Part shown: piece after piece, positions 3,262-61,198 of the stretch
Position numbering within the stretch: position 1 is the stretch's first letter
How the letters are laid out: each line of letters opens with the position of its first letter
NCBI GenBank assembly: GCA_963793305.1
Contig: CAWBZV010000002.1
Location: 480,001 to 544,000 of the forward strand
Reading direction: 5' to 3'
DNA length: 64,000 bases
DNA from: an uncultured Gemmatimonadales bacterium
GTDB lineage: Bacteria > Gemmatimonadota > Gemmatimonadetes > Gemmatimonadales > Gemmatimonadaceae
Position numbers and translations under genes: made by a program
The notes under the pieces: model-generated
Database searches by the model: none
Seen by the model: the letters and a program-made list of their open reading frames with translations, nothing else
What the model was told of the DNA's origin: nothing

Positions 3262-4390
3262 ATGCCGACGACGCAGCCGAACGCCGCGCGCCGATATGCG
3301 CGCATCACGGCGGATACGCGTCGCCTGGCCGCGGTCCGCGCTACTGGACTGCCTGAAGGACGAGGGCCCCGAGATCGGTTCGAGCGACTCGCCGCTGTCG
3401 CCGCGCGGCTGCTCGATGCCCCAGTCGCCATCGTCTCCCTCGTCGACGCCCAACGCGACGTTCTGGGTCGGACTGACCGGCGTCCCACCCGCCGTCGCCG
3501 CCGCCGGCGGTACCACGATGCGCCCCTCCTTCTGCCAAGCCATCATCGCCTCCACCGGCGATGCGCTCGCCATCCCCGATGCGCGCGTCGACCCCGTCTT
3601 CTCGACGTTCCCGTCCGTCACCGCCCTCGGCGTCGTCGCCTGCCTCGGCGTCCCGCTCATCACCCGAGCCGGACTCCCCCTCGGCAGCTGCTGCGTCTAT
3701 GACATGAGACCCCGCGACTGGACCCGAGAGGACATCGAGACCCTGAGCGCCCTCGGCGCCGGCGCCGTCGCCGAGATGGAACGCCTGGCCGCCGTCACCG
3801 CCGGCGACGAGACCAGCGACGCCGTCGTGCGCTACCTCGGCGCCGCCATCGATACCATTGATACGCTCGCCCGCGTGATGCCATCCCAATGCGACACGAG
3901 TCGCATCACACGCGTGTCCCAAACCGCCGCCACGGTCGCACGCCAGTTCGGGACTCTCGCACGGGCGCTCCCCGCCACAGGCACGATCGACCTCGCCGTC
4001 ACCGCCCACGATATCTGGCGACTCCTCCAGATCGTCGCCGGCGAAGAAGCCTCCGTCACCCTCGATTTCACGGACGGACTTCCAGCCGTCGCCATCGATC
4101 ACACCCGCATGGTGCGGCTACTCGTGACGCTCGTCGCCGGCGCGCGCGACGCGCTCAATGGCCGCGGGTGGATACAGATCGCCGCCGAGCCCGGCGATAC
4201 GAATACGGTTCGCATGACCGTCCGCGCCGTCAACGCCAGCGCGCCCCTCGGCATTCCGCTCTCGGGCGGCGCCATCATCGCCGCCGACCAACTGCTCCGC
4301 GTGTGTGGCGCTACCGTCACCACACACGAGGAGAGCGTCGCTGTCGCCCTACTCCGCGCGGCGGATGGCCGCGCCGATCGTCTCGAATAG
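3262..4390 (+). CDS. GAF domain protein with degenerate histidine-kinase-like C-terminus (frameshift ~3461)
   Basis: RLAAVRATGL..FERLA..AARLLDAPVAIVSLVD joined to FCQAII...DAR.DP..GVPL..GS.CV.D.RPRDW by removing 1 nt. Confidence 0.75.
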
Positions 4391-5665
4391 CCGGTCGATC
4401 TGCTCCGGCTCGACGATGAGCGGCGGCGACACCGCGATCGTGTCGCCCGTCGTCCTGATCATCACGCCCTGCTCGAAGCAATCGAGGAAGACGTCGAACG
4501 CACGCGTCGTCGCGCCCGGCACACCGCGCGGCTCGAGCTCGATCGCCGCCACGAGACCAATGTTGCGAATGTCGATCACGTGCGGCAGCCCGCGCAGCGC
4601 ATGCGCCGCATCCCCAAACCGGTCGGCGAGCGATGCCGCACGGTCAAACAGCCCCTCGCTCTCGTAGACATCGAGCGCCGCCAATCCCGCCGCGGCCGCG
4701 AGCGGATGCCCCGAGTAGGTATAACCATGAAATAACTCGATGCCGCCATTGCTTGCGTCGATCAGCGCCTCGTAAATGCCCGAGCGAACAAAGGTGCCAC
4801 CCATAGGGACGCTGCCGTTCGTCATCCCCTTCGCCACCGTCATGATGTCCGGCACGACATTGAAATACTCGGCCGCGAACGGCGCACCCAACCGACCGAA
4901 CCCCGTGATCACCTCGTCAAAGATCAACAGAATCCCGTGCTCGGCCGTGATCGCGCGCAGACGCTCGAGATACCCAACCGGAGGAATGAGCACACCCGTG
5001 GAGCCCGCGACCGGCTCGACAATGACGGCAGCGATCGTCGACGCGCCGCGCTCCCGAATGACCCGCTCGAGGTCGTCGGCCAGATGCGCGCCGTGCTTCG
5101 GTTGACCGCGCGAGAATGCGTTCGTCGGATGGAGGTGGGTATCGACGATGTGATCGATCCCTGGCAGGCCCGAACCAAATTGCTTGCGATTGTTCTCGAT
5201 GCCGCCGACCGCCAGGCCGCCGAATCCCACGCCATGATAGGCGCGGTTCCGCCCGACGAAACGCGTACGCCCAGTCTCCCCACGCGCGTGATGGTAAGCG
5301 AGCGCGATCTTGAGCGCCGTGTCGACCGCCTCGGATCCCGAGTTCGAGAAGAACATGTGGTCGAGATCGCCGGGGGCAATCGCCGTCAGGCGAGCAGCCA
5401 GTTCGAACGCGAGCGGGTGACCGACTTGAAAACCGGGTGCGTAGTCGAGCTCGGCCGCCTCTTCCTGTATGGCGGCGACGATCGGCTCGCGGCAATGCCC
5501 CGCGTTCACGCACCACAGCCCGGCCGCACCATTGAGAATGCGGCGCCCGTCGGCCGCCGTGTAGTACATCCCCTTAGCCGAGACCAAGAGACGCGGCGCT
5601 CGCTTGAACGCCTTGTTCGCCGTGAACGGCATCCACAGCGCATCGAGTGTTACGGTTCCCGTCAT
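4349..5665 (-). CDS. Omega-amino acid:pyruvate aminotransferase (class III)
   Basis: WMPFTAN, GLWCVNAGH, NSGSEAVD, LIFDEVITGFGR, TVAKG, FHGYTYSGHP. Confidence 0.92.
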   Translation of the reverse strand: MTGTVTLDALWMPFTANKAFKRAPRLLVSAKGMYYTAADGRRILNGAAGLWCVNAGHCREPIVAAIQEEAAELDYAPGFQVGHPLAFELAARLTAIAPGDLDHMFFSNSGSEAVDTALKIALAYHHARGETGRTRFVGRNRAYHGVGFGGLAVGGIENNRKQFGSGLPGIDHIVDTHLHPTNAFSRGQPKHGAHLADDLERVIRERGASTIAAVIVEPVAGSTGVLIPPVGYLERLRAITAEHGILLIFDEVITGFGRLGAPFAAEYFNVVPDIMTVAKGMTNGSVPMGGTFVRSGIYEALIDASNGGIELFHGYTYSGHPLAAAAGLAALDVYESEGLFDRAASLADRFGDAAHALRGLPHVIDIRNIGLVAAIELEPRGVPGATTRAFDVFLDCFEQGVMIRTTGDTIAVSPPLIVEPEQIDRLFETIGAAIRRAE

Positions 5666-5717
5666 AATACCCGTATAATCGATGTTGCTCATATAACGGG
5701 GCAACTGTCTTATCCTT

Positions 5718-6770
5718 GTGCCGCCCACTGCTCAGGAAACACGTGCCTTGCCGTTGCTGGTCGTCGATGACGATGCGGCGGTCCGACGTTCCCTGGGGTC
5801 GGTTCTCGCCTCACTCGGCTACGCGGTAGAGACGGCCGAATCGGGCCAGGCCGCGCTGGCGCTGCTGGTCCGGGGCAAGTTCGCGGCGATGCTCTGCGAC
5901 GTGCGCATGCCCCAACTGAGCGGGCTCGAAGTGATCCCCAGCGCCCGCGACATCGACCCCGAGCTGGCGATCATCATGGTCAGTGCGGTCAACGAGGCCG
6001 AAACCGCCACCGAGGCGCTCAGGGCGGGGGCGGTCGACTACGTGACGAAGCCGATCGAGATCGATTCCATTAAGGGATCGATCGAGCGCGCGCTGAACGA
6101 ACGCGCCGCCGCTCGGCGCCGGTCCCAACGCGCGCTGCGCGAGGCCGTCGCGGCCCGAACCTCGGCGCTCGAACGCGAAAAGGCGGCCCTGCGGGGGCTG
6201 ACGATCAGTACGGCCGAGGCCCTCCTCAAAGCGATGGAAGCCAAAGACCCGTATCTCAAAGGCCACTCCACCCGCGTGTCCGAGCTCGCCGGTCAGGTCG
6301 CTCAGACACTCGGCCTCGACGCCGAGATGATCGAGAATGTCCACCTCGCCGGGCGGCTGGCGGACATCGGCAAGATCGGCACGCGGGAAGATGTCCTCCA
6401 CAAGAATGGCCCGCTGACGCCCGAAGAGTTCGACCACGTGCAAGACCACGTGCGCATCGGCCTCGAGATCCTCGCGCCGCTCAATCACCTCGGCGTCGTG
6501 CTCGACTACGTGCACGATCACCACGAGCACTACGACGGGACCGGGTATCCCCGAGCCCTCGAAGGCTCCGCGATCTCGATCGGCGGTCGAATCCTCGCGG
6601 CAGCCGATGCCTTTGTCGCGCTCACGTCACGACGCGCCTACCGCGAGCCGATGTCGGAGACCGACGCGATCGAACACTTGAGAGAAAGCGCCGGCTCGCT
6701 GCTCGACTGGACCGTGTACGCGGCGCTCCGCACCGTCATCGCCGAGAGGTTGGGAATAGCACTGGATTAG
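5718..6770 (+). CDS. Response regulator with HD-GYP-like domain (RpfG-like)
   Basis: LVVDDD/CDVRMP/KP receiver; KDPY..GHS.RV, DIGKIG, HHEHYDGTGYP. Confidence 0.9.
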   Translation: MPPTAQETRALPLLVVDDDAAVRRSLGSVLASLGYAVETAESGQAALALLVRGKFAAMLCDVRMPQLSGLEVIPSARDIDPELAIIMVSAVNEAETATEALRAGAVDYVTKPIEIDSIKGSIERALNERAAARRRSQRALREAVAARTSALEREKAALRGLTISTAEALLKAMEAKDPYLKGHSTRVSELAGQVAQTLGLDAEMIENVHLAGRLADIGKIGTREDVLHKNGPLTPEEFDHVQDHVRIGLEILAPLNHLGVVLDYVHDHHEHYDGTGYPRALEGSAISIGGRILAAADAFVALTSRRAYREPMSETDAIEHLRESAGSLLDWTVYAALRTVIAERLGIALD

Positions 6771-6799
6771 TGGCGCGGCGCTTGCTTCTTTATGTAATA

Positions 6800-8218
6800 G
6801 TGGAACTGCGAGAGCGCCTGCAAGCGGCGATCGGTACAGAATACGAAGTCGGCTCCGAGCTCGGTGGCGGCGTGCAGAGCCGCGTCTATGCCGCTCGGGA
6901 CACCGAGCTGGACCGTCCAGTCGTCATCAAAGTTCTTCCGCCCGAGCTCGCCGCAGGCGAGGGCATAGAGCGTTTCCGCCGCGAAATTCGACTCGTCGCG
7001 GGGCTGCAGCACCCACATATCGTCCCGTTGCTGGTCGCCGGCGAAGCCGATGGGCTGCTCTACTACACGATGCCGCTCGTCACTGGCGAGTCGCTTCGCG
7101 CCGTGCTCGACCGCGAAGGCCCGCGAGATATCGAGTTCGTCGCGACAGTCATGGCCGAGGTGGCGAGCGCACTGGTCTACGCGCATGGACGGAACATTGT
7201 CCACCGCGACGTCAAACCCGGCAACATCTTCGTTGAGGCCGAGTCCGGCCGGATCTTGCTCGCCGACTTCGGCGTCGCGCGACGCATCGGATTCGAGGGA
7301 ACGGTCACCGCGAGCGGCGTCGCGATCGGCACGCCAGCCTATATGTCGCCAGAGTCCCTCGACGGCGGACCCGTTGATGGCCGCAGCGACATTTTCAGCC
7401 TGGGCCTCGTCGCCTGGGAACTGCTCGTCGGCGAGCGGCCGTGGCAGAGCGAGACCCTGTACTCGCTGATCTACAGCCAGAAATGCGAGCCGACGCCATC
7501 GCTCGTCGATCGTCGGCCCGATGTCCCGAAGCGTCTCCGGATCGCGATCGAGCGCTGCTTGAAGAAAGACGCCGACGAACGGTGGGAGAGCGCCGACGTG
7601 CTCCTCGCCTATCTCTGCGATACCGAGGCCGACGAGCCTCGCCTCGTCCGCCGTCGGACGTTGGCCGCGGGTCCAGCCACCCAGCGGCCGGAGCCCTCGT
7701 TCCGTCCGCGCGCACCACGGACACTCTCGGCAGGGCGCCTCGAGGTTCGGTGGAACGGCGATCTGCCGGTCGTGATCCCGCCGCGACTCAAAGCCCGAGG
7801 CCGACGCCTGTGGCCGCCTGCCATCGTACTGGCCGCCGCTCTCGTGCTGGCCGTTGGACTGCGTTTTACCCAACACGTCAGCGCTTCGCCAGCCGTCGTC
7901 GCCGAGGCCAATGGAGACGTCCCGTCCCTCCCAGCTGTCGATGTAACGGCAAGCGCCCCGGTCGTGCCCGTGGTGGAAAGACGCACGACCTCGCAGTTGG
8001 ACCGCGTGTTCGCGTCGGTCGTCGTTGCGATGAGAAGGAGAGGCGGCGAGTCCGCCGTGCGCGAGCTCCAGCGCGCCGAAACCATGTGGGAGGCCGGCCG
8101 CCGTCGCGACTGCGCACGCCAGGTGAGCGACGATGCCCGAGCGCGCTGCTCGTCGCGGCTGGCGACGCTGCGCGCCGAAGAATTGTCGGAGCTGCTGGAG
8201 CGCACCCGGTCCCGTTAG
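6800..8218 (+). CDS. Hanks-type Ser/Thr protein kinase with TM segment
   Basis: VVIK, HRDVKPGN, DFG, GTPAYMSPE, D.RSDIFSLG; likely GTG start 6800. Confidence 0.92.
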   Translation: MELRERLQAAIGTEYEVGSELGGGVQSRVYAARDTELDRPVVIKVLPPELAAGEGIERFRREIRLVAGLQHPHIVPLLVAGEADGLLYYTMPLVTGESLRAVLDREGPRDIEFVATVMAEVASALVYAHGRNIVHRDVKPGNIFVEAESGRILLADFGVARRIGFEGTVTASGVAIGTPAYMSPESLDGGPVDGRSDIFSLGLVAWELLVGERPWQSETLYSLIYSQKCEPTPSLVDRRPDVPKRLRIAIERCLKKDADERWESADVLLAYLCDTEADEPRLVRRRTLAAGPATQRPEPSFRPRAPRTLSAGRLEVRWNGDLPVVIPPRLKARGRRLWPPAIVLAAALVLAVGLRFTQHVSASPAVVAEANGDVPSLPAVDVTASAPVVPVVERRTTSQLDRVFASVVVAMRRRGGESAVRELQRAETMWEAGRRRDCARQVSDDARARCSSRLATLRAEELSELLERTRSR

Positions 8219-8228
8219 CTTGGGGGTC

Positions 8229-8723
8229 ATGGCGGAAGACACGCCGGACCTCAGAAACTTGCCCAAGCGCGAGGCGTACCAAACCCTCGCCACGCACATC
8301 GATTCCGTCCTCGACGGTATCACCGACCCGATCGCCGCCATGGCGACGATCTCCGCTCTGGTGCACCACGGATTCGGCCACCTGTGGACCGGATTCTATC
8401 GCGTCGTCAACGACGGCAAACAGCTCCGCGTAGGACCGTATCAGGGCACACTCGGCTGCCTCGAGATCCACGTCGGCAAGGGCGTATGCGGAACGGCGGC
8501 GGCGAGCAAAGCGACGGTGATCGTCGAGGACGTCCACGCGTTCCCCGGGCACATCACCTGCGACGCCCGGTCGCGGTCCGAGATCGTGGTGCCCGTGTTC
8601 GATACGACCGGCGCGCTGATCGCCGTGTTCGATATCGACAGCGACCGCCCGGCGGCGTTCGATCGCGAAGATCAGATCGGACTCGAGGGCGCCCTCGGCT
8701 GGTTCGCCACTTCGTGCGATTGA
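8229..8723 (+). CDS. msrC: GAF-domain free methionine-(R)-sulfoxide reductase-like protein
   Basis: WTGFY, GPYQGTLGC, GKGVCG, HITCD..SRSEIVVP, DIDS. Confidence 0.8.
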   Translation: MAEDTPDLRNLPKREAYQTLATHIDSVLDGITDPIAAMATISALVHHGFGHLWTGFYRVVNDGKQLRVGPYQGTLGCLEIHVGKGVCGTAAASKATVIVEDVHAFPGHITCDARSRSEIVVPVFDTTGALIAVFDIDSDRPAAFDREDQIGLEGALGWFATSCD

Positions 8724-9476
8724 TGCTCGTGCTCGCCGCGCTCGCCCCACTCGGCGTCGCGGCCCAAGACAACTATGAGATACAGGTCTACGGCTCGCAG
8801 ACCATCGGGCGCGACACGACGATGTTCGAGCTCCACAGCAATTTCACCGCCGATGGGCGGAGAACGGTGCAAGAGGGGTTGTGGCCGACCGAGGACGTTC
8901 GAGCACGAGACCCTCGAGATCACGCACGGCTGGACGCCATGGTTCGAGACCGGGTTCTATCTCTTCACGTATGTCAGCGGCCACGAAGGATGGCAGTGGG
9001 TCGGCGATCACATCCGACCGCGCATCCGCGTGCCTGACTCGTGGGGATGGCCGATCGGCCTGAGTCTCTCGACCGAGATCGGGTATCAGCGGCCGAGGGT
9101 CTCGCAGGATACCTGGACCTGGGAGATCCGTCCGATCATCGACCAGACGATCGGTCGGTGGTACTGGTCGGTCAATCCGGCGCTCGAACGGTCGTGGAAA
9201 GGCGCGACGGTGAACCAGGGTCTCGTGTTCGCGCCGAACGTGACGGTGGGATACGACGTAACCCACTTTGTCAATCTGGCGGCCGAGTACTACGGGTCGT
9301 ACGGACCGATCACCAACTTCTCCCCGTACGACCAACAGCAGCATCAATTGTTCGGCTGCATCAATCTCGATTTCGGCCCGATGTGGGAATTCAACTTCGG
9401 CGTCGGCAACGGATGGACGCCCGCAACCGACCACGTGATCATCGAGATGATCCTTGGCCGCCGAATGGGATTCTAG
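8723..9476 (+). CDS. Putative outer-membrane beta-barrel protein (frameshift ~8898)
   Basis: Signal peptide, QDNYEIQVY, alternating aromatic strands, C-terminal Phe; two frames joined by removing 1 nt. Confidence 0.65.
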
Positions 9477-9970
9477 CGGGAATACCGTCGGCTGAGGTTG
9501 AAGCCGGTCGTCGCGCCGACACTCGGGAGGAGAATGATTCCCGCGAAGCTCACGGCGCACACGAAATGACACGGGCGCGACGTGTCCGTGTGATTGAGCC
9601 GGATGAGCGCAAAACTGCCCAGTCCCCCGACAGCAGTGCCGGCGAGCGCGGCGAGATAGGAGCCGGTCGCGTGTCGCCCGGCCTGTCCGATCAGCGTCGG
9701 CGGGACCGCGGTGGCAAACGCCGCGATGGTGTACCCGCCGACCAAACCGGCCGTGCTCGCGGCATCATCGCTCGCGCCGAAGCGACGCGCGACCCAACGC
9801 GTCGCGATGCCGCCGCCAATGAATCCTATCGGCAACGCCGCGGCGCCGGCCGCAACTTCGGCCGCGAACCGTCCGCCGGTGACTGCTGGTTGGCCACGGC
9901 GTTGCGCGGCCGCGGGTGTGCTGAGACACACCAGGAGCAGCGCTAGGCTTGCTCCGGCGTCCAGCCGCAT
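9473..9970 (-). CDS. Hypothetical secreted/membrane protein
   Basis: Signal-like N-terminus and Gly/Ala-rich hydrophobic helices. Confidence 0.55.
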   Translation of the reverse strand: MRLDAGASLALLLVCLSTPAAAQRRGQPAVTGGRFAAEVAAGAAALPIGFIGGGIATRWVARRFGASDDAASTAGLVGGYTIAAFATAVPPTLIGQAGRHATGSYLAALAGTAVGGLGSFALIRLNHTDTSRPCHFVCAVSFAGIILLPSVGATTGFNLSRRYSR

Positions 9971-10320
9971 TTCCGACACGGCCCGAACCCACCATGGACG
10001 ATGTCGGCGTGAATCAACGTGCCGCACTTGGGGCAGTGGTGCTCGACCTCGTGACCAGCTGCCACGGACGGTGTCTCGCTGATCATCGCGATGACCCGAG
10101 CTTGCTGCTCGGGTGTCATCGACGCACTGAGCGCTGCGACGGATCCCAGCGTGGTCGGTTTGGGACGGGGCTGCGTGAGCGCCGCGCCCCATGAGGCCCA
10201 TGAGCCCGGATCGCCGTTCTCCTGCACCTCGCGCGAGGCTCTGATCAGCCACGGGATGAGGCGCCAGGCGATAGTCAAGAAAATCCCCGCCTCGCCACCA
10301 TAGCGATAGCCCGGATCCAT
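9943..10320 (-). CDS. Hypothetical membrane protein with C-terminal zinc ribbon
   Basis: One TM segment; CPKCG...CRKCG. Confidence 0.55.
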   Translation of the reverse strand: MDPGYRYGGEAGIFLTIAWRLIPWLIRASREVQENGDPGSWASWGAALTQPRPKPTTLGSVAALSASMTPEQQARVIAMISETPSVAAGHEVEHHCPKCGTLIHADIVHGGFGPCRKCGWTPEQA

Positions 10321-10333
10321 ACTCCATGGACGA

Positions 10334-10924
10334 TCAGCCGAACAGCTTCGCCACGAAGAGCGCGGCTCCCACGGCGCCGATCGCCAATGAGGTCCCCAGA
10401 ACGCCCCTGGACCTCGTGAGCGCTGACACCGCACCGAGCGCAATCGCGACCTGTAGCAACGTCACCGAGAACGCAAAACCTTTGTGTTGCGTCATGAGAC
10501 GCTCGGCTTCGTCGATCTTCTCGTCGCGCTGGTGCTCGAGCACTTTGGCGCTGTCGCTGATGGCCTTCTGCTCATTCGCGTAGCGTTGCACCGTGGCATT
10601 GATGTCCGGCGGAGGCGTCTTTCCCACCGCGTGCCACGTCGCTTCGGATCCGGCGGCGATAGCGCCCTTGATCCCCTTGGCCTGGTAGTATGCCCACTCA
10701 TCCGAGGCCTGGGCTTGAAGGCCCGTCGCTTCGGTCTTCAAAAGAATCGCGTCGTTGACCGTCGCCCCGGCCTTGAGCGACGCGATCGCGGCCAGCGCCG
10801 CGAGCACCGCGGTCGAGAGCGCAGTGAAGCGAAGCATCCGGCCCTCGCCACCCTTCTTGGCCTCGATCTCCTCGTCGATCTTCTCGCGCAGCTTGTCGGT
10901 GTCGACTTCGATTTCTTCAGGCAT
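10334..10924 (-). CDS. DUF4337-like membrane protein
   Basis: ASDEWAYYQAKGIK and LLQVAIAL motifs, TM helices. Confidence 0.8.
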   Translation of the reverse strand: MPEEIEVDTDKLREKIDEEIEAKKGGEGRMLRFTALSTAVLAALAAIASLKAGATVNDAILLKTEATGLQAQASDEWAYYQAKGIKGAIAAGSEATWHAVGKTPPPDINATVQRYANEQKAISDSAKVLEHQRDEKIDEAERLMTQHKGFAFSVTLLQVAIALGAVSALTRSRGVLGTSLAIGAVGAALFVAKLFG

Positions 10925-11933
10925 CCGGGGAAGCTAGCATCGACAGGAACTCGAGCCCATTGGTCGTCCCGTAGTTTCCGTAGCAATTATTGAACACGAC
11001 GTGGACGCCCTGGAAGTGCGGCTCCTTCACCTGGGCCGCGGCCTCCTGTACTCGCGGCACCCATTCCTCCAGCTGGCTCCGGTCATAGAGATATCGATAT
11101 CGCTCGGCGACGGACACGCCGCGTTTCTCCCAGGTATCCGTCCGGCGTCCATGCATGCGCACGAGCGCCACAAAGGGCAATGTGACCGCCACATCTGGCG
11201 GCATACTGGATCGCATGCCCGGCGGCGCGTCGACCATCACGTACGCGAGCCAGTTTTTCTGGAGCAGTGCCAATGTGCGCTCGCGCAGCCGATCCGACAT
11301 CCACGCCCGATTTCTGAACTCGATGGCGAGCGGCAGATCGCCGAGTCCCTCCTTGGTCGCCGCAACCACCGCGGCGTTCTCCCGGGTCGGGCCGAACCAG
11401 GGCGGAAACTGGAACACGATCGCGCCGAGACGCCCCGCCGTCGCGAGAGGAGCCAGACCGTTGGCGAACCGTCGCCTGACTTCAGCCATCACCTCGCTCG
11501 GCAGATCGTGCGCATAGACTCGCGGCTTGTCGGCGAGTGCGGAGGGTAGCGCGTGATACAGATCGGCCGGTAGACGGCGCGGCTCGGATGGGTGCCCGGT
11601 CAGCAGCGCGTGCGCTTTCATACAGAACCGGAACGACTCGGGCGTCCGGTCGACCCAGTGCTGGACGACCACCGGCGGCTGCAGCGCATAAAACGTCGAG
11701 TCGACTTCGACCATCGCGAACCGACTCGCGTAGTACTTGAGCCGACCCTCAGCGGACGTCGCGCCGGGTGGATAGAATACACCGGGCGCAGTGAGCGTAC
11801 GATCGGTCCATCCCGCCGTGCCGACGTAGACCTTGCCGCCGGCCGGCAGGGAAACGGGCCCAGTCGTTACAGCGCCGAGCCGTTCCGCGCGGGCACGCGC
11901 CGCGTCACGGTCCGGGTCGTGCTCAGTGCTCAT
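10917..11933 (-). CDS. DUF72 family protein
   Basis: YVGTAGW, VEVDSTFY, FQFPPWF, EFR, RMHGR, FNN. Confidence 0.9.
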   Translation of the reverse strand: MSTEHDPDRDAARARAERLGAVTTGPVSLPAGGKVYVGTAGWTDRTLTAPGVFYPPGATSAEGRLKYYASRFAMVEVDSTFYALQPPVVVQHWVDRTPESFRFCMKAHALLTGHPSEPRRLPADLYHALPSALADKPRVYAHDLPSEVMAEVRRRFANGLAPLATAGRLGAIVFQFPPWFGPTRENAAVVAATKEGLGDLPLAIEFRNRAWMSDRLRERTLALLQKNWLAYVMVDAPPGMRSSMPPDVAVTLPFVALVRMHGRRTDTWEKRGVSVAERYRYLYDRSQLEEWVPRVQEAAAQVKEPHFQGVHVVFNNCYGNYGTTNGLEFLSMLASPDA

Positions 11934-11980
11934 GCGTTGGAACTCTATTTCGGGGTCTGTTCGGACGCCAGGGAGGAACG

Positions 11981-12160
11981 ATGGAAAGGGAAGACGAGGA
12001 GCAAGAGGAACAGGAGGAGCAGCAGGCGTTGGAGCGCGACGACCGTGAGGGGCTGATCGGCGACACGGACGAGAATCGGAATCTGAGCGGGTCGACGACT
12101 TGGGAAACCCTGCCCGATCAAGGCCCAGCCGACGACGACGAGGAAGACGCCGCAAGCTGA
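11981..12160 (+). CDS. Small acidic protein (59 aa)
   Basis: Below ORF-track cutoff; strong GGGAGG RBS; MEREDEEQEEQEEQQALERDDREGLIGDTDENRNLSGSTTWETLPDQGPADDDEEDAAS. Confidence 0.7.
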   Translation: MEREDEEQEEQEEQQALERDDREGLIGDTDENRNLSGSTTWETLPDQGPADDDEEDAAS

Positions 12161-12170
12161 AGATTGAACT

Positions 12171-12215
12171 CACCGGCCAGTCGCGGATAGTATGGTGATG
12201 ACCGACTGGCCGGTG
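12171..12215. promoter_or_regulatory. 13-bp perfect inverted repeat (terminator and/or operator)
   Basis: CACCGGCCAGTCG-N19-CGACTGGCCGGTG followed by TTGTTT; overlaps TTGAAC...TAGTAT. Confidence 0.55.
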
Positions 12216-12223
12216 TTGTTTAC

Positions 12224-13694
12224 ATGATGCACTGGTATTACAACCTTCGTTTACGCACGAAGTTGATCGCCGCCTTTGCGTTGGTGATCGGCGTGATGGC
12301 GGTCGACACCGTGCTCGTCGCCGGGGCCATAGGCGCGAGAGACTGGATACTCGCGAGAAACATGCTCTGGATCGGCGGGGGCCTGATCGTGCTCATCGCG
12401 GTCGGGAACTACTGGCTCATCGGCCAGAGCGTCGCCTGGCCCGTGCAAGAGCTCAAAAGCAAGATGGCCCTCGTGGCCCGCGGCGAGGTCGGCGTCGAGG
12501 TCTGGATCACGTCGCACGATGAGTTCGGTGAGCTCGCGCGCGGTCTCGAGCAGATCATCGCGTCGCAAAAGGCCATTGCCGGCGCCGCGAGCGCGCTCGC
12601 CGCGGGCGATGTCGCCTCACCGCTCCAGCCTCGCAGCGACAAGGACGTCACCGGAAACGCGGTCGCTCATTTGCAGGATACCGTGCGATCGCTCCTGGAA
12701 CGTCATGGCGCGGCTCATCGCATCGGCCAAGGCCGGTCGGCTCACCGAGCGCGGCTCGGCCGCCGAGTACGAGGGCGCCTGGCACGATCTCGTGCACGGC
12801 ATGAACGACACGCTCGACGCCATCGTGCGCCCACTGACCGAAGCCTCCACCGTGCTCCGCCGCGCGGCGTCGCGCGATGTCACGGCGCGCATGATCGAGA
12901 CGTATGCCGGCGATATGGCGGAGTTCAAGACGACCCTCAACACCGCCGTCGTCAACCTCGACGAAGCGCTGGCCCAGGTCTCCGGCGCCGCCGACCAGGT
13001 CGCTGCGGCGTCCGATCAGATTCGCATCGGGAGCGAATCACTCGCCGAAGGAGCAGGGGAGCAAGCGACGGCGATCGCGACCATCTTCGAAGAGTTGCAG
13101 GAGCTCGCCATCGTCACGCGAACGAACGCCGAGCACGCGAATGCCGCGCGCGGGCTCAACGAGGCGGTCGGCATGCGCGAATTGAGCGAGGCGATGCAGC
13201 GCATTGAGGCCTCATCGAGCGCCATCGCCTCGATCGTGCACGCGATGGACGACGTCGCGACCCAGACGAACGTGCTCGCGCTCAACGCCGCCATCGAGGC
13301 GGCGCGCGCGGGCGAATACGGAAAAGGATTTGCGGTCGTCGCGCAGGAAGTGCGCAGCCTGTCGACGCGAAGCGCCGAGGCGGCGCAGAGCACCGCGCGC
13401 CTCATCGAGGAGGCGCGGCGGCACGCCGAGGCCGGCGCGGCCATCGCATCACAGGTCACGGGCGTCATGGATGAGATGGCAAAGGCCAGTGATCGCCAGC
13501 TCGAGGGCGTCGAGCACATTCGCGTGGCCATGGAGCAGGTCAACCACGCGACGCAGAACGTCGCTGCCAGCTCCGAGGAATCCGCCGCCGCGGCCGAAGA
13601 GTTACAAAGCCAGGCCGAAGAAATGCGCGGCCTCGTCAACTCGTTCCATCTGAGTGGGCGTGATACCCGCGGCAATTTCGCAAAAGCAAGTTAA
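12224..13694 (+). CDS. Methyl-accepting chemotaxis protein (frameshift ~12700)
   Basis: 2 TM, HAMP domains, [31 protein letters not shown]. Confidence 0.9.
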
Positions 13695-13792
13695 GCGATC
13701 GTTGAGGTCGTTGGGTCTCGACATCTGACCCCACCTGCAGCCGACGAGTCGACGAAGTCGACGAGTTCGGCTGCTCTGTCTATAATTCAAGC

Positions 13793-14290
13793 GTGACCGA
13801 AGCCTGGTTGCGCGGACCGGTGTACGGCGTCGACCCCTTGGTCATGCCGGCAGTCCACGCATTGATGCAAGCGAGCGACGAGATCACGCGGGCCGCTCCG
13901 GGACTGACGCCGGCGCAGCTGTGGGCGACGCCGGGCGGAGCAGGGTCGGTCGGATTCCACCTCCGCCATATCACGGGCAGCATTGACCGCTTGTTGGCAT
14001 ACGCCCACGGCCAAGCGCTCAATCCCCAACAATTCGCGACGCTCCGGGAAGAAGCGATACCCGGCGATCCGCCGGCCGAAGCCGCCCCGCTCGTGGACGA
14101 GGCGAGAAGCGCGATCAAGCGGGCGATCGCCGAGATCAAGGCAACGCCGGTCGCGACACTGCCGGAGCCACGCACGGTCGGACGGGCCGCGTTGCCGACA
14201 ACGCTCTTCGGACTCCTGTTTCATATCGGCGAGCACACCGAGCGTCATGCCGGTCAGATCATCACGCTCTCCAAGGTCGTGCGGGGATGA
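13793..14290 (+). CDS. DinB family protein
   Basis: EAWLRGP, SVGFHLRHI, HIGEHTERHAGQ. Confidence 0.85.
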   Translation: MTEAWLRGPVYGVDPLVMPAVHALMQASDEITRAAPGLTPAQLWATPGGAGSVGFHLRHITGSIDRLLAYAHGQALNPQQFATLREEAIPGDPPAEAAPLVDEARSAIKRAIAEIKATPVATLPEPRTVGRAALPTTLFGLLFHIGEHTERHAGQIITLSKVVRG

Positions 14291-14946
14291 CCGAGCAAGA
14301 CCTCGGCTTCGTGCACCGCTGGGTGCCCGGCCACGGGTCGCCGTTGACCGCGCTCGTGCTCCACGGCACGGGTGGCGACGAAAGCGACCTCCTTCCACTG
14401 GGCGCCGCGGTCGCGCCCGGCGCGGCTCTCTTGAGCCCACGCGGCAAGGTGCGCGAGAACGGCGCGCCCCGCTTCTTCAAGCGCGTTGCGCTCGGCGTCT
14501 TCGACCAAGCGGACCTCGCCGCTCGAACCGACGAGCTCGTGACGTTCGTTCACCGCGCAGCAGCGGCCTATGGGTTCGATCCCACGAAGATCGTCGCCGT
14601 CGGCTACTCCAACGGCGCGAACATCGCCTCGAGCGCGTTGCTCCGGCACCCGGGCGTGTTCGCCCGCGCCGTGCTGTTCCGGCCGATGGTGCCGTTCGTG
14701 CCGGATCCATCGCCGACGCTCAACGGAATGCCCGTATACATCTCGGCCGGTCGCGTCGATCCGATCGTTCGGCGTGACAATACGGAGGAGCTCGTGCGCG
14801 TGCTCACTGGGGCCGGGGCCTCAGTGACCGTGCGCTGGGAAGAAGCCGGACATGCCCTGACCTCCGGCGAAGTGCAAGGCGCCTCCGACTGGCTGTCCGA
14901 TCTGGACCGCCCGCCCAAGCGGCCGCGGCGTTACACTACGCCGTGA
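14287..14946 (+). CDS. Alpha/beta hydrolase (phospholipase/carboxylesterase)
   Basis: LHGTGGDE, GYSNGA, D, GH catalytic elements. Confidence 0.9.
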   Translation: MTEQDLGFVHRWVPGHGSPLTALVLHGTGGDESDLLPLGAAVAPGAALLSPRGKVRENGAPRFFKRVALGVFDQADLAARTDELVTFVHRAAAAYGFDPTKIVAVGYSNGANIASSALLRHPGVFARAVLFRPMVPFVPDPSPTLNGMPVYISAGRVDPIVRRDNTEELVRVLTGAGASVTVRWEEAGHALTSGEVQGASDWLSDLDRPPKRPRRYTTP

Positions 14947-18555: not shown

Positions 18556-18558
18556 GAG

Positions 18559-19692: not shown

Positions 19693-20946
19693 TGGGGTGA
19701 CGCCTCATCTGGGATCAGATCGCGGCCGAGGGCCCGGTCAAGCGAATAGGCCGCGACCCAATAGTCGTGCACAGCGGTGAGGTATTCCGTGCGAATGTCT
19801 TGGTTCGTCCGAATCGCGTCCAGTACGTCGAGCAGCGAGCTCGCGCCGCGCTCGTAGGCGTACCGGGCGTTGGCGACTGCTTGGGCAGTCTTGTCCAACA
19901 GCCCACCCTGATACTTGCGTGCCAGAATAGTTGCCGACCGGAGCGAGTCGGCGGCTTGGATGACGTCGGAGATCGCTTGTCGGCGCGCTTCGTTATCGGC
20001 CAGTTGCGCGACCGCGACGCCGGCCTTCGCCTTTTCGCGCTCGCCGCCGTACCAATCCCAGAGTGGGATGGGCATCGAGATGCCGAGGCTGAAGCGCGAG
20101 GTCCTGCCGAACGGAAACGAGAATGTCGTAAGGCTGAGTCGGCTGCCAGCCAAGCAACAGGGTCGGGTACGGCAGGAGCAACCAGTCTTGCTGGCCTTGA
20201 ATGGCGTGGCTCTGGTCGAGCTGCGTATCGGCCGCCTTGAGGTCGGGTCGATCCGCAAGCGCGACAGCGAGGAGACTGTCAGGGCGATCGACCGGGACGC
20301 CCACGGTCTCGAACCGCAGGGTGCCGACAACCTTGAAGGCGGTGTCGGGCTGTTTGACGCCGATCAGAAGTTGCAGCGCGAGGCGGGCGGATCGAACGGT
20401 TGCCTGTGCATGCGCGAGCGCCGCGTCGGCCCGAGCGAGATTGAGCTCGCTCGTGACGACATCGGCCTCGGCGGCGGCGCCGTTCTTGAGGCGAGCCGAG
20501 TCGGCGGCAAGCAACTGGACGAGGATGTCGCGCTCATCACTGGCGAGCGACGCCAGCGCGTCATCGAGTATCAGGTCGTAGAACGCCGAGCGGACGTTGA
20601 AGACGACCGTCCGCTGCGTGTCGTAGAGGGAGAACCGCGTGGCGCCGAGTCCCAAGCGCGCGGCCTTGATGCGGTAATAGCGATTCGGGCCGATGTCGAG
20701 ATCGGACGAGAGCGCGTACTGGAATGGGAGGCCCGGTTGCACGGCCGCGGTGGGGTTCGTGAACGCGCGCGCGATGCCGAGCTCGCCGTGCGCCGAGTCG
20801 ACGTGTAATCGCGCCGTGACGATGTCCGGGTTCTTCGCGAGCGCATACTGGACGACCGCGTGTAACGTCGGCGGTCCGGCCGAGTCCGGCCGCTGCGCCG
20901 TGGCGACGATCGGGAAGGCGACCAGCCAGAAGAGACGCGTGCGCAC
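19689..20946 (-). CDS. czcC: TolC family outer-membrane channel (frameshift ~20123)
   Basis: ALAKNPDI, ALADRPDL, YERGASSLLDVLDA; two frames joined. Confidence 0.85.
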
Positions 20947-21111
20947 GTGCGAAGGATGGGAATCGGATCGGAGGGCGACGACACCCGTCGTGGGGTTGTT
21001 ACACTCGGCCGTAGGTATAACAGCGGGACTGGCAGTCCCACGAGTGGCTTGGGTAATCTGGCAGATCGTCCCCGTCATTCGCGTCATCGTGATGATAAAT
21101 CGGCTATATCG

Positions 21112-21182
21112 TGCAAAATGCGCTCACTTTTGTGCACATTTTGCATTTTTTGATTGACACGGCCGCCGGCCAGTGTCATTAT
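21112..21182 (+). promoter_or_regulatory. Sigma70-type promoter of the APC permease with two inverted repeats
   Basis: TTGACA(21154)-17-CATTAT(21177); IR TGCAAAATGCGC/GCACATTTTGCA 21112-21145; IR TGACAC...GTGTCA 21155-21178. Confidence 0.65.
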
Positions 21183-21189
21183 GCCGATA

Positions 21190-24267: not shown

Positions 24268-24300
24268 GGCGTACGATATTATGCAGCCTGAGAGAACGCT

Positions 24301-25621
24301 ATGACTGAGCGTGGGCCTGATGCGGCGGCGACCCTGCGCGAGCTCGAAGCGCAGGGCGTTCGCTTTCTGCTCTTGCAATTCACCGATCTGCTCGGCGTGA
24401 ACAAAGCCGTCGAGCTGCCGCTCGCGCAGGCGCCGAAGGCGCTCGCCGAGGGCGTCCTCTTCGATGGATCCGCGCTGGAAGGGTTCGCGCGGACCGAGGA
24501 GGCGGACGCGCTCCTCGTGCCGGATCTCGCCACGTTTCGCGTGTTCCCCTGGACCGAGCCGCCCGAACGTCATGGCCCGGCTCATCTGCGACATCCGGTA
24601 TCCGGATGGCCGGTCATTCGAGGGCTGCCCGCGCACCGCGCTCAAGCGACAAATCGAGTCCGCCGGCCGGCTCGGCTATGCACCACTCGTTAGCGCCGAG
24701 GTGGAGTTCTTTCTGTTCGAGCAAGGCACGGAGACGCGGGACGCCGGGAGCTACTTCGACCTCGGTGGCATCGACGAGGGCGAACGGACCCGGCGCACGA
24801 TATCCGGCATCATCGAGGACATGAAGCTCGGGCCGGCCGCGTCGCACCACGAGGTTGGACGTGGCCAACATGAAATCGACTTAGGTCTGACTGATCCGCT
24901 CTCGCTGGCCGACAATATCGTCACGCTGCGGTTCGTCCTGCGCAGCATTGCGCGTCGGTCGGGACTCATTGCCACCGTGATGCCAAAGCCCACATACGGT
25001 CGGAGTGGCTCGGGCATGCACACGCATCAGACGCTCATGTCGAAGGGGAAGAATGCGTTCTTCGACCCAAAGGGCCCGGAGAAATTATCAGACACCAGCC
25101 GGCGCTATATCGCCGGTCTCTTGCGCCACGCCCGCGGCTATAGCGCCGTCACGAACCCGCTCGTGAACTCGTACAAGCGGCTCGTCGGTGGCTTCGAGGC
25201 TCCAGTGGATGTGTCGTGGTCGACACAAAATGTGTCCCCGCTGATCAGAGTTCCCGCCGAACGCGGCGACGCCACGCGCTGCGAGAACCGCCTGCCGGAT
25301 CCCGCCGCCAATCCTTACCTCGCGCTCCTCGTGCAGCTCGCCGCTGGCCTCAATGGCATCACCGAGAAGCTCGATCCGGGAGATCCGATCAACAAGAACA
25401 TCGCGCGCATGTCATATCGTGAGCGCCGCCGCTACCGGATCGACCAGCTGCCGCGCGATCTGCACGAAGCGCTCGACTATCTGGAGAAGGACCGCGTCAT
25501 TCGCGATGCACTCGGCGAGCATATCTACGAGCGCTACCTCGAGGCGAAGCACGAGGAGTGGTCGGAGTACATCGAACACGTCAGCGCGTGGGAGATCGAC
25601 CGCTACCTGGGCCGCTACTAG
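24301..25621 (+). CDS. glnA: Glutamine synthetase family protein (frameshift ~24567)
   Basis: FDGS, EVEFFLF, HHEV..GQHEI, MPKP..G.SGSGMHTH, NSYKRL, RVP, ENRLPD..ANPYL. Confidence 0.88.
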
Positions 25622-36200: not shown

Positions 36201-38595
36201 GTGATGGTGACCGTCCCGCTGTCATTGAGGCCGCCGACCGGCCGCACGAGCCCCGTGTTGGAAACCGTGGCCACGCCGGGTTTGCTGGACGTCCATGTGA
36301 CGGGCCGCTGGAGCGTATCGCCCTGCGAATCGTCCAGCGTATCGGACATTTGCAGCGTCTGCGCCGCGGTAATCGTCGCGGTCGTGGGCACGATGACCAC
36401 GCTCGAGACGGGTGCCAGCGTGACGGTGATGCCACCCCCGCCCGTCTTGCCGCCGGTCGATGCGTAGACCGAGTCCGAACCGGCGGCCACGCCGGTCACG
36501 ACTCCGGTCTGATCGACGCTGGCGATGCTGCCGCCGGACTTCGTGATCCACGTGAACTGGCGGCCCGCGAGAAGATTGTTGTTGGCGTCGTACGCCTTCG
36601 CGACCACCGTGCTGGTGAAGCGGACGTTGACCGTGAACAGATTTGGCGTCAGCACGACGAACGCGACGGGAACATTGCTCACCGTCACCTGGGTCGTGCC
36701 ATTCACATTGTTGCCCGAGCTCGCGGTGACCGTGATCGGGCCGCCGGATGCGACGCCGGTCGCGGTGCAGGTGTCGAGCTGCGTGACCGGATCGACACCG
36801 CCGGCACTCACGGTCACGTTGCCGGTTGCCGCCGATTGCCAGGTCACGCTGCGGCCGGACAACACGTTGCCGCTCCCATCCTTCTGCGTTGCCGTGAGGA
36901 TCGCGGTCTGTCCGACGATGATGGTGACGGGATTGGGCGTCACGGTCACCGACGCCGTCGGCGCGGCGATGACGGTCGTCGTGTTCGTATCCGCTTTCGC
37001 GCCGCTCTGCGCGATGACCTGCGCGACGCCGGGCGCCACGCCTTGAACGAGGCCCGTGCTCGACACGAATGCGATCCCGTTGTTCGTCGAGCTCCAGGCC
37101 ACCGCGGGGTTCGTGATCACGTTCCCCAACGAGTCCGTCACCGTAACGGTCAGTTGGGTCTGTGTCCCCGCGGTGACCGTCACGGTCTTCGGTGAGATCG
37201 CGACCGAGCCGACTGGAATGGGTTTCACGGTCACCGTTGCGGCGGCTACCTTGCCGCCGCTCGTCGCGACAATGGCGACGGTGCCGGCGCCGACGCCCGC
37301 GACCAATCCCGAGGTCGAGACGGTCGCGACCGCGCTATTGCTCGAAGACCACGCCACCGTCCGTCCGCTCAGCGTATTCCCCGCCGAATCTTTCACGGTC
37401 GCCGTGAGCTGCGCGGTTCCGCCGATCGTGATCGAGTCGAGCGTCGGCGCGATGCTGATCGACCCGACCGGCACCAAGGCGACATTCACGGTCGCCGTGC
37501 CGGATTTCGTGCCGCTGGTTCCAGTGATCTGCGCCTGTCCCGACCCCACGGCGGTCAACATTGCGGTCAACGGACCGGTGGCCGTGACGGTCGCGACGCC
37601 GGGCGTGTTCGAAACGAATGCCACCGTCGCGCCCGCGATCGGGTTCCCCTGATTATCGGTCACTTCCGCGGTGAGCGCTTGGCTTTGCCCGACGAGCAGA
37701 TTCGAGAGCGCGGGCGACATGACGACGGTGTTGATCGGCACCGCCTGCACGGTGAGCGTGGCGGTCGACGTGACGCCGCCGCTCGTCGCGCCGACGGTCA
37801 CCGAGGCGACGCGCTTGCCGGTCACCGTCCCGGTCTGGTCGATCGTCGCGATCGTCGTATCGCGCGAGAACCATGTGAGGCTTCGGCCCGTGAGCACATT
37901 GCCCGCCGAGTCCTTCGTGGTCGCCGACAGCTGCGTTGTTTGCCCGACGATTACACTCGGGCTGTTGGGCGAGAGCACGATCGTCGCCACGGGGACGAGG
38001 GTCACCGTGACCGTGGCGGTGCCAACGATCGAGCCCGATGCTGCTTGGACGGTTGCCATGCCCGGCCTCCGCGCGATCACGAAGCCGGATTGGTCGACCC
38101 CCGCGATGGTCGTGTCACTGATCGACCAGATCACCGGTCGTCCCGTGAGCGCGTGGCCCGTCGCGTCCTTCGTGGTGTCGGTATACTGCGTCGCGGTGCC
38201 GACGCGCAGCAGGGCAGTGCTGGGCGCCACGACGACCGACGCGACGGGAACGGGGAGAACGGTGATCTGCGCCGGGTGACTGGGCGAGACGCCGGCGGTG
38301 CTCGCATCGATGGTGGCCGTGCCGACGGCGATGGCGGTGACGACACCGCCCTGGGTAATCGTCGCGACACTGGTGTTGCTCGAACTCCAGAAGATCGGCA
38401 GGTTGTTGACCGGTCCTCCGCCCGAACGTCACGGGTTGCGCTGAAAACGTCTTCATGGCGCCAAGGACAATCGACACCGTGTCGGGGGTGATGATGATGT
38501 CCGCGACGTGGTGCGCATTCGGCCCGGTGACGTCGCTCGCGCACGCGGCCAACAGGATGGCCGCGGCGATTCTACCGTGGAATCGTAATAGCCAC
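33206..38595 (-). CDS. Giant lipoprotein with ~20 Big_2 domains (frameshift ~38426; start uncertain)
   Basis: LLAAC-ASDVTGPN N-terminus in one frame, joined to the 1674-aa ORF by removing 1 nt. Confidence 0.8.
33775..36152 (-). repeat. Nine tandem 264-bp (88-aa) intragenic repeats
   Basis: DPVA.V.VAP..STI...QTQQLTATL.DAGG..LTGR.VTW.SSN..ATVSNTGLVSPTG.NDSGTVTITA units at 264-nt spacing; boundaries approximate. Confidence 0.85.
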
Positions 38596-41136: not shown

Positions 41137-41140
41137 TCGG

Positions 41141-47464: not shown

Positions 47465-47475
47465 AGCCCCAAAAA

Positions 47476-48136
47476 CTATCGCGATTCGGCGAGAAGTGGT
47501 AGCATCGCCCTCCACTCGGTAGCAGCGGCCACGCGCGAGCCGGCGACGTTCGGATGCATGCGGTCGGCCTGATTCAATGCGGGGCGCCCGGCCACACTAT
47601 CGAGGAGAAACGGCAGCAACGTCGCGTTCTCGGCCTTGGCCGCCTGCCCATACACCGCGTGAAAACGCGACGCGTAGTCGACGCCCAGGTTCGGCGGCGC
47701 CTCCATCTGAACCACCGCCAACCGGGCCGCCGGCCGCTCCGCATGCACCTTGGCCAGGATCGCCTCGAGGTTCGCCCGCAACGAATCCGTGTCCAGCCCA
47801 CGCAGTCCGTCATTCGCGCCGGTTTCCAACACGAACACGTCGACCGGACCTCGCAGCAACCAATCGATGCGCCGAAGCGCCCCGGCGGAATGTCTCGCCG
47901 GACAACCCCGCATTGACGACGCGATACGGCAGCCCGGCTGAGTCGATCTTCGCCTGAATGAGCGCCGGCCACGCATCTTCGGGATCGAGTCCGAGCCCCG
48001 CCGTCAAACTCGTCCCGACGATAAGCACCGTCCGGCGCGCCGTCGTGTCCGCGTGCACCAATGTAGTTTGGACCGACGGTGATCGCTCACGCGAACAGGC
48101 CGTCAGCACCATCACACACGCGACCGTCAGTCTCAT
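47476..48136 (-). CDS. tesA: GDSL/SGNH arylesterase lipoprotein (frameshift ~47890)
   Basis: GTSLTAG, NAGLSGET|SAGA, ETGANDGLRG, DRMHPN. Confidence 0.85.
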
Positions 48137-58806: not shown

Positions 58807-58817
58807 ATTAACGACCT

Positions 58818-59738: not shown

Positions 59739-60852
59739 CACGGCGCTGACCGCACGGCTCGGTCTTCGCTATCCGGTCATCCTCGCGCCCATGGCCGGCG
59801 GGCCGTCGACGCCGGAGCTCGTCGCCGCGGTATCGAACGAGGGCGGCCTGGGCATGCTGGGCGCGGGGTACCTCGCTCCCGATGCCATTCGCTCCGCGAT
59901 TCGCTCGATTCGCGCGCTGACGGACCGTCCGTTCGGCGTCAACCTGTTCGTTCCGGATCCGGCTCGGGACCCCGATGCCGTCGTCGAAGCAGTCGCGCGT
60001 TCCCGAGCGCTGCTCGAACCCTTCGCCGTGGAACTAGGAGTAACCCTCCCGTCTGAATTGTACCCGGTCGATTTCGACGCCCAAGCCGCCGTGCTCGTCG
60101 AAGAACGCGTCGCAGTGGTCAGTGTCACGTTCGGCGTCATGAGCGCGCGTTGGATCGCGGCGTTCCAATGGATCGGCACAGTTGTCATTGGCACCGCGTC
60201 GACGGTGGCCGAGGGCAAGGCACTGGAAGACAGTGGCGTAGACTTCGTCGTCGCGCAGGGGTCTGAAGCCGGAGCCCACCGCGCGACGTTTCTCGCGCCA
60301 GTCGCCCGATCCTTGATCGGCACCATGGCCCTCGTGCCGATGATGGTCGACGCGCTCACCGTGCCGGTCATCGCATCAGGCGGCATCATGGACGGCCGCG
60401 GCGTCGCTGCCGCCCACATGCTTGGCGCCGTGGGAACGCAGCTCGGCACGGCATTTCTCGCCACACCCGAGAGCGGTGCGCCGGCGCCCCACAAGGCCGC
60501 GGTGCTGACGGCGACCGAGGAGAGCACGGGCGTCACGCGCGTCTATTCAGGTCGTGCGGCTCGCGGCGTGCTCAATCGTCTCGCGCGCGAGCTCGAGCCG
60601 CACGAGGCCGAGTTACCCCCGTATCCGTTGCAGAACGCCCTCACGCGCGATATCCGCATCGCGGCCGCGCGCGCGGGCAACCCTGATCTAATGTCGTTAT
60701 TCGCGGGGCAGGGCACTCGGCTTGCCACCGACCTGCCCGCGGCCCATGTCTTTCGCCGAATCGTCCGCGAGACCGTCGATCTCTTCGATGCGCTGGAGGT
60801 GCCGCCCGCCCTCGAAGGGAGTCGTAAGCCAGGTGTTGAGGATGTCCCGTAG
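59716..60852 (+). CDS. Nitronate monooxygenase family flavoprotein
   Basis: APMAGG, QGSEAGAHR, SGGIMDGRG, QLGTAFL; GTG start 59716. Confidence 0.9.
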   Translation: MTRPRWPDTALTARLGLRYPVILAPMAGGPSTPELVAAVSNEGGLGMLGAGYLAPDAIRSAIRSIRALTDRPFGVNLFVPDPARDPDAVVEAVARSRALLEPFAVELGVTLPSELYPVDFDAQAAVLVEERVAVVSVTFGVMSARWIAAFQWIGTVVIGTASTVAEGKALEDSGVDFVVAQGSEAGAHRATFLAPVARSLIGTMALVPMMVDALTVPVIASGGIMDGRGVAAAHMLGAVGTQLGTAFLATPESGAPAPHKAAVLTATEESTGVTRVYSGRAARGVLNRLARELEPHEAELPPYPLQNALTRDIRIAAARAGNPDLMSLFAGQGTRLATDLPAAHVFRRIVRETVDLFDALEVPPALEGSRKPGVEDVP

Positions 60853-61198
60853 CATCGCCTCTGGAATCAACCGCTCTCCGAGCGACAAGACGTTCGAGTC
60901 GTTATGCGCGCGCGCGAAGCGCGCCGCATCGACATTCCAGCAGATGGTGCACCGTATGCCGCGGATGCGATTGGCGACGATGGCCTCGCCATTACCGGAC
61001 CCACCGAGCACGATCCCGCGCTCGTAATCCCCGATGGCCACGGCTTCCGCGACCGGCCGGATGAACAACGGATAGTCGACGGATTCAATCGAATTCGTTC
61101 CGAAATCGTCGAACGTCGTGTCCCGCTTCGCGAAGCCAGCCGATGATGAGCCCTTTGTATCGAAAGCCGGCGTGGTCCGAACCGATCGCGATTTTCAC
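60697..61198 (-). CDS. rpiB: Ribose 5-phosphate isomerase B (frameshift ~61113)
   Basis: MKIAIGSDHAGF, VDYP, GGSGNGE, HNDSNVLSLG, FEGGRH. Confidence 0.9.

Follow-up and report, generated by a model that had tools for sequence, protein, structure and literature searches.

Why should the same superfluous base recur at one short motif in unrelated genes of a single bacterial chromosome segment, and is that base in the DNA at all? The question is raised by a stretch of 64,000 nucleotides from an uncultured Gemmatimonadales bacterium of the family Gemmatimonadaceae (G000:C2:480001-544000, hereafter the window), part of a source genome, G000, of 5.72 Mb in 26 contigs with 65% GC and 92% completeness, one protein of which has a close homologue labelled Gemmatimonadaceae. 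An initial annotation of the window had located eight frame breaks at one word, and GAAYGTC or its complement GACRTTC is indeed present at all eight coordinates. The best explanation of the whole, which can be held with good confidence, is that these are nanopore basecalling errors near N6-methyladenine (6mA) at two motifs, GACGTC and GATG, for each of which the host has a solitary methyltransferase as the likely writer.

The extra bases in the window and their absence elsewhere

Deletion of the extra base restores the reading frame at each of the eight sites, and the peptides predicted across the repaired junctions (QRDVWV, EDVEH, LLDVMA, YDISF, PPDVMA, VTSGGG, GETSAG and HDVDDF) were all reproduced. 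The relative G001, of the same genus (5.4 Mb, ~92% identical to G000), is without the one base at 8 of 8 sites. By class, there are six GACGTC sites and two GATG sites. Those at GACGTC split a GAF-domain gene (3457..3463, reverse strand; GAF by Pfam), a second gene on the reverse strand (8894..8900), and, on the forward strand, an MCP gene (12698..12704), glnA (24565..24571) and rpiB (61111..61117), with a further forward-strand site near the start of a giant gene of Big_2 repeats (38424..38430). The two GATG sites, also on the forward strand, split an OEP/TolC gene (20121..20127, in an AGATG context) and a GDSL (TesA-like) gene (47888..47894). The gene names first proposed stand by profile for GAF, MCP, OEP/TolC, GlnA, Big_2, GDSL/TesA-like and RpiB, while Pfam gave no match for the gene at 8894, first read as an 'OM barrel'.

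The effect is partial, as had been supposed: the window holds 44 GAAYGTC/GACRTTC words, of which eight are the insertions, beside 44 intact GACGTC. Ten frameshifts had been counted, eight of them with the motif. All of these eight stand; a ninth, without the motif, was found as an isolated extra base in an S9 peptidase gene (55892, forward strand; again absent from G001), and the tenth was not identified. The insertion at 55892 lies two bases behind a GATG and is not of the GA to GAA form, and its link to the GATG motif is uncertain. Two further one-base insertions (3016 and 45176) have divergent flanks and were excluded from the count. As a separate matter, the giant Big_2 gene encodes a surface-type protein with 17 Big_2 matches and adjoins a Ser/Thr kinase fused to RCC1 repeats (window 33206-41205).

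Near-identical public contigs bear directly on the presence of the base in the DNA. Contigs of four public runs (X1, X2, X3 and X5) were aligned to window positions 5000-24999, which include four of the eight sites; those at 38424, 47888 and 61111 lie outside the contig-aligned stretch. X1, X2 and X5 are contigs from a single study, with the library type unrecorded. X1 matches in three long pieces (~19.9 kb) with 33 other letters and four gaps, and the gaps fall exactly at 8898, 12699, 20122 and 24566. The extra base is absent from X1 at all four tested sites (8894, 12698, 20121 and 24565), from X2 at the three that it covers (12698, 20121 and 24565) and from X5 at the one that it covers (12698); X3 covers none of the four, and G004 is also without the base at glnA. 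Eight of the 32 listed X1 substitutions are of a single kind, the window having A for a G that stands before an A, in GATG/CATC at six positions (5533, 10600, 11179, 17208, 18737 and 23148) and in GACGTC at two (7662 and 23512).

The base is thus missing from a close relative and from near-identical contigs wherever these were checked, and it is therefore almost certainly a sequencing error. That the extra bases are an artefact of consensus or assembly can be concluded with very little doubt, and the alternative offered at the outset, that the base is genomic and the genes are recoded, is not supported, since the base is absent from X1 at four of four sites.

Genome-wide extent

The relative G001 was aligned in 79 stretches (1.52 Mb of its 5.4 Mb), yielding 1.19 Mb aligned at 92.0%. 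Among isolated one-base differences from G001, the change from GAYG to GAAYG accounts for 105 of 170 insertions in G000 and none of 66 deletions (Fisher p=3e-20), far more than chance would give. The 170 insertions comprise 60 at GACGTC, 8 at GATGTC, 36 at other GATG and 1 at other GACG; of the remainder, 12 have an additional G upstream and form a less specific class, to which 5 deletions also belong, and 53 belong to no class. Coding frames contain 93 of 117 motif-type insertions, compared with 24 of 119 other indels. An NCBIfam scan of 85 of the 93 affected G001 segments identified, among others, dnaA, cysS, metG, transaldolase and kdpB, and by tblastn the sole close copies of dnaA, cysS and metG in G000 are each split into two frames at the motif.

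A reference-free (ab initio) frame test gives a similar result, with a recall of 46/105 and a precision of 46/51 in G000. It called frameshifts at 133 of 2,499 GAACGTC and 99 of 9,102 GAATG words in G000, with 0-0.4% at four control words, and at 0 of 594 and 0 of 2,318 in G001. The two routes, extrapolation of 105 per 1.19 Mb and the 232 ab initio calls, agree on about 500 such insertions genome-wide. False substitutions, extrapolated from eight per ~19.9 kb, number roughly two thousand. Word composition carries the same imprint: the most over-represented hexamer pair in G000 is AACGTC/GACGTT, GACGTC is among the most depleted, and the CAACGTCG/CGACGTCG ratio of G000 (1.76) is the highest of 31 genomes, followed by G006 at 1.48, with the rest of the genus at 0.58-0.83. 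The 31-genome tallies here and below include the unpublished G012, on which no conclusion rests.

Two observations on composition stand apart from the motifs. AGCGCT, AACGCT, CTCGAG, TTCGAA and AAGCTT are under-represented in G000 (observed/expected 0.53-0.77), possibly reflecting old restriction-site avoidance. With both motifs masked, G001 shows a mild excess of G at positions occupied by C in G000, in the context CGC_A (317 vs 200; p=3e-7, 5,821 contexts), probably a matter of lineage drift.

Two motifs in place of one

Motif counts were controlled by swapping the roles of G000 and G001 (reverse control). GACGTC strand-sites are altered in 143 of 674 cases (110 G>A, 33 insertions) compared with 9 of 540 in the control, whereas GACG without a following TC is at background (222/10,749 vs 202/10,728), which rules out a general GAYG motif. 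GATGTC is altered at 74 of 657 sites (control 9/592), and GATG without a following TC at 375 of 6,542, including 28 insertions, vs 192 of 6,359 and no insertion in the control. GATC differs little from its control (232/11,783 vs 219/11,771). The base before GATG matters: CGATG gives substitutions (276/3,581 vs 93/3,395), the insertions occur at AGATG (28 vs 0), and the rates at GGATG and TGATG are close to background. Near-neighbour preferences aside, no further conserved flank position was found within 12 bases. A bipartite motif of Type I or BREX-like kind was considered and rejected, there being no distant flank signal (the best gapped context of 683 tested had p=5e-4) and no HsdS (PF01420 without match).

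There are, then, two motifs, GACGTC and GATG, and the GAYGTC of the initial annotation is a blend of the two drawn from only eight examples; its broader reading, of a consensus artefact at modified bases that reveals host methyltransferase motifs, is upheld. A single methyltransferase with the motif GAYGTC would account for all eight window sites, and among GATG hexamers GATGTC has the highest rate of substitution errors (70/657). Such an enzyme is nevertheless very improbable, because 36 of 44 GATG-type insertions have no following TC, because the 28 insertions at GATG without TC have no counterpart in the control, and because the relative G003, described below, separates the GATG error from the GACGTC error.

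Still less credible is a Dnd phosphorothioate at GAAC/GTTC as the cause of the error. The called sequence at GACGTC sites does contain GAAC after the insertion; this GAAC, however, arises from the error only, and GATG accounts for half of the errors. At true GAAC words there is no excess of insertions, with 0 A-insertions in 5,321 intact sites, and no match to dndC and none to dndD over the cut-off was found in G000 (92% complete; Ssp-type systems not searched). The phosphorothioate possibility raised with the first reading is accordingly not supported.

A probable nanopore error beside N6-methyladenine

The artefact itself is of a known kind. Basecallers are reported to call A in place of a G that precedes a methylated A, within CRAY and only on the methylated strand (PMC12016153, in excerpt); ambiguous positions at RACG/CGTY drop from 2,357 to 44 after polymerase chain reaction (PMC11610573, in excerpt), and motifs have been found via strand-specific errors (PMC11610603, in excerpt). 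In G000 the commoner error at both motifs, which the initial annotation had not noted, is a G>A substitution directly before A, with a preference for C on the upstream side and for Y on the downstream side. The form of the error is that of the published G-before-6mA pattern, and the modified base is therefore taken to be A. The presence of 6mA in both GACGTC and GATG is, from the error pattern, quite probable.

Under the proposed mechanism, nanopore basecalling would err beside the modified base in G(m6A)CGTC and G(m6A)TG in two forms, as G>A or as GA>GAA, the insertion presumably being the same position read with both letters. Some reads of the methylated strand would be miscalled, and only where these prevail would the error enter the consensus, which would account for the 5-25% of sites affected, depending on their flanks. 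The platform is likely nanopore, judging from the error pattern in the consensus.

Candidate methyltransferases

Family searches of G000 found one C5 methyltransferase beside vsr, one beta-class N6/N4 methyltransferase, one D12 methyltransferase (the single PF02086 match), one gamma-class methyltransferase beside an SNF2 helicase, and PglX in a BREX locus; HsdS (PF01420), phage-type Dam and dndC had no match in these searches. The search for a matching enzyme, advised at the outset, thus yields two fitting solitary adenine methyltransferases, the beta-class and the D12. Two NPP/DPP motif matches on contig C5 were rejected on the context of their open reading frames, one being a shadow frame and the other an ABC permease.

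The beta-class enzyme (G000:C2:48215-49120) is a 302-codon open frame with PF01555, DPPY and DPFMGSGS, and it would write GACGTC on both strands, like M.AatII. Its gene was found in 6 of 31 genomes. The best PADLOC model is PDLC03215, a Type II methyltransferase model of 331 positions (322 bits), and no match named AatII was seen among the 120 homologues listed or the 25 plasmid matches listed. The alpha-class D12 enzyme (G000:C4:116398-117492) is a stand-alone homologue of the N-terminal domain of FokI-type methyltransferases and would write GATG on one strand. The protein matches the N-terminal half of methyltransferases of 644-651 residues that adjoin FokI-domain endonucleases, being 33% identical over 343 residues to that half of a 651-residue methyltransferase beside such an endonuclease. 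The gene is present in 12 of 31 genomes, G012 among them, and in both G000 and G003 it is flanked by an LpxR-like gene and a gene for an ECF sigma factor. Sequence comparison with solved structures gave no match for the D12 protein, and homology searches gave no named homologue that fixes the specificity of either enzyme. The two pairings taken jointly, the beta-class enzyme with GACGTC and the D12 enzyme with GATG, are favoured by a slight margin over their failure.

Other loci of this kind may be noted in passing. The gamma-class methyltransferase (a 1,087-codon frame) is followed by the SNF2 helicase in two open reading frames (G000:C4:73529-78868); its presence in 29 of 31 genomes from three families is an unusual degree of conservation for a gene of defence-like kind. 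The BREX locus (BrxC, PglX and PglZ by PADLOC; G000:C3:725000-742300) has several genes in two open reading frames and is followed by the C5 methyltransferase, which has a DruM-like profile, with vsr. No error motif was detectable for the BREX locus of G000.

These enzymes bear on the possibility that the artefact is the same and its chemistry another: the mark would lie on the CATC/CGTC strand, as N4-methylcytosine or 5-methylcytosine at the last C or as a gamma-class C(m6A)TC, and the error would be C>T there. The strand that was misread is not visible in a consensus, and G000 encodes a C5 methyltransferase, a beta-class enzyme of a family that includes writers of N4-methylcytosine, and a gamma-class methyltransferase in common with G003. 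In addition, putative CATC writers of REBASE are described as solitary gamma-group enzymes (PMC12898733, in excerpt), and N4-methylcytosine on the strand facing the miscalled G has been considered in the case of GAAGAC (PMC12016153, in excerpt). This alternative is nonetheless unlikely, given that both motifs err at a G directly before A with C preferred upstream, which matches CRAY, that DPPY is present in both candidate enzymes, and that GACGTC is a known 6mA motif. A 6mA on the GACGTC and GATG strand is preferred.

A natural experiment in a relative

Site-level tests were also made in G003, G007 and G016, and whole-genome word counts only in G006, G020, G026, G028 and G029. G003, of the same genus and in one contig, has a syntenic orthologue of the D12 gene (73%) and no match to the beta-class methyltransferase; it carries a different PF01555 gene. 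In 400 kb of G003 the ab initio test called frameshifts at 7 of 516 GAATG and at 0 of 99 GAACGTC words. The beta-class gene accordingly occurs with the GACGTC signal in G000, and neither was found in G003, these being two informative genomes only. The CAATGT/CGATGT ratio is 0.42 in G003 vs 0.18 in G001, with control-word ratios similar in G000, G001 and G003.

The change in G003 has a clear strand bias. CAATGT occurs 1,436 times forward and 616 times in reverse, CGATGT 2,019 vs 2,843 times, with sums of 3,455 vs 3,459 (p=1e-105), and in each of the 20 stretches examined around the contig CAATGT is commoner forward than in reverse. Such dependence on the strand in which the assembly is written points to the consensus software. 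This strand bias supports the kind of explanation given here, and for G000 the support is indirect. For G003 itself the counts amount to some 800 CGATGT words apparently turned into CAATGT on the written strand only, and the assembly probably contains thousands of false substitutions.

The same observation bears on a chromosomal origin of the extra base, whether by motif-directed recoding or editing or by a mutator at methylated sites in this strain. For such an origin it may be said that X1 may be a different strain, and that the comparison uses contigs and not reads of the source sample. The base is, on the other hand, absent from X1, X2, X5 and G001 wherever they cover a site and is not conserved in relatives, the ~500 breaks lie in unrelated genes including dnaA, cysS and metG, and beside them stand G>A changes that have the form of the known artefact. 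A change that tracks the written strand round a whole chromosome, as in G003, is moreover not expected of a biological process, and a chromosomal origin is scarcely tenable. The origin in basecalling and consensus is thus retained.

Among the other relatives, the three highest CAATGT/CGATGT ratios (G006 0.49, G003 0.42 and G000 0.39) all belong to carriers of the D12 gene. Ratios are low in the other nine carriers, which would follow if their assemblies were made in another way, and the composition of G006 is different. G026 has the beta-class gene and is without D12 in the 31-genome tally, and G007, with 4 frameshift loci in 200 kb, has too few to inform the pairing of gene and motif. G006 (150 contigs) is of some interest in itself, with both ratios high (1.48 and 0.49), the D12 gene and no beta-class match; base composition or the same artefact could be responsible.

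Weight of the evidence and its meaning

Several points weigh against the explanation as a whole. Another 24 of the listed letters distinguish X1 from the window, and X1 may be another strain, or perhaps the source sample itself. X1, X2 and X5 share one study, and the contigs cover just four of the eight sites. Platform and modified base are both deduced from a finished consensus and not from reads or raw signal. Neither does G000 have a clear written-strand bias of the kind seen in G003 (70 vs 63, 44 vs 55). The link between the beta-class enzyme and M.AatII is indirect: the model length of 331 fits a length for M.AatII that we take from plasmid sizes in PMC3287169 together with the length of Dam, and it is no more than a lead. 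G016 has the D12 gene and no error, but it has 0 frameshifts of any kind in 200 kb, which makes it uninformative on this point. The pairing for GATG is not unique, since the gamma-class methyltransferase is also common to G000 and G003 (29 of 31 genomes), and in the MhoVII system the writer of GATG is a beta-class domain (PMC12898733, in excerpt). Finally, the published signature is one of substitutions, and the literature search found no paper that describes the one-base insertion.

The practical consequence is a caution for G000 and G003: genes that look split or like pseudogenes, substitutions of the Asp>Asn type and motifs that seem avoided should not be taken there as biology. The errors provide, at the same time and at no cost, part of the methylome of a soil bacterium from an uncultured lineage of the Gemmatimonadaceae. 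They make it probable that an orphan enzyme in the Gemmatimonadaceae, similar to the N-terminal domain of the FokI methyltransferase, places a G(m6A)TG mark on one strand; CGATG and AGATG alone make up more than 40,000 sites. The fuller proposal, that one locus across the genus encodes such an orphan with no restriction partner, that its one-strand mark is possibly regulatory, and that methylomes can be read from errors, stands at about even chances. If it is true, methylomes would be readable from the error spectrum of finished, nanopore-only public genomes, without reads or raw signal. A literature search found no report of a GATG motif in Gemmatimonadota (REBASE not covered), and one preprint notes that earlier work had seen no motifs in marine Gemmatimonadota (10.64898/2026.06.24.734251).

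Comparison with known systems

Published nanopore methylation errors, as excerpted, share with those of G000 the G to A change before adenine, the CRAY/RACG context, the partial penetrance, the strain-specific motifs and the absence from other sequence data. They differ in being substitutions in cultured isolates, whereas here there are ~500 one-base insertions as well, the genome is environmental, and the motifs were obtained from a consensus compared with a relative. M.AatII makes G(m6A)CGTC (PMC3287169, in excerpt). The palindrome and the probable modified A are the same in G000, where the candidate is a PF01555 enzyme; unlike M.AatII, the beta-class gene has no neighbouring endonuclease in the list of open reading frames, and its likeness is by a PADLOC model and not by the M.AatII sequence.

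The N-terminal domain of M.FokI recognises GGATG (PMC3985630, in excerpt). The D12 enzyme shares with FokI-type methyltransferases the D12/alpha class, homology to the domain for the GGATG strand and the common GATG core. It differs in that the G000 protein is a single domain, without the second (CATCC) domain and with no endonuclease at the locus, and in that its apparent motif is without the first G, errors occurring at CGATG and AGATG and little at GGATG. MhoVII of Mycoplasma hominis is the nearest precedent for the motif itself: it makes G(m6A)TG / C(m6A)TC, a GATG motif being virtually unknown before its validation in 2026 (PMC12898733, in excerpt). As described there, it has the same four-base non-palindromic motif, but it is a full restriction-modification system that modifies both strands with a beta-class writer of GATG, in contrast to what is here likely an alpha-class orphan.

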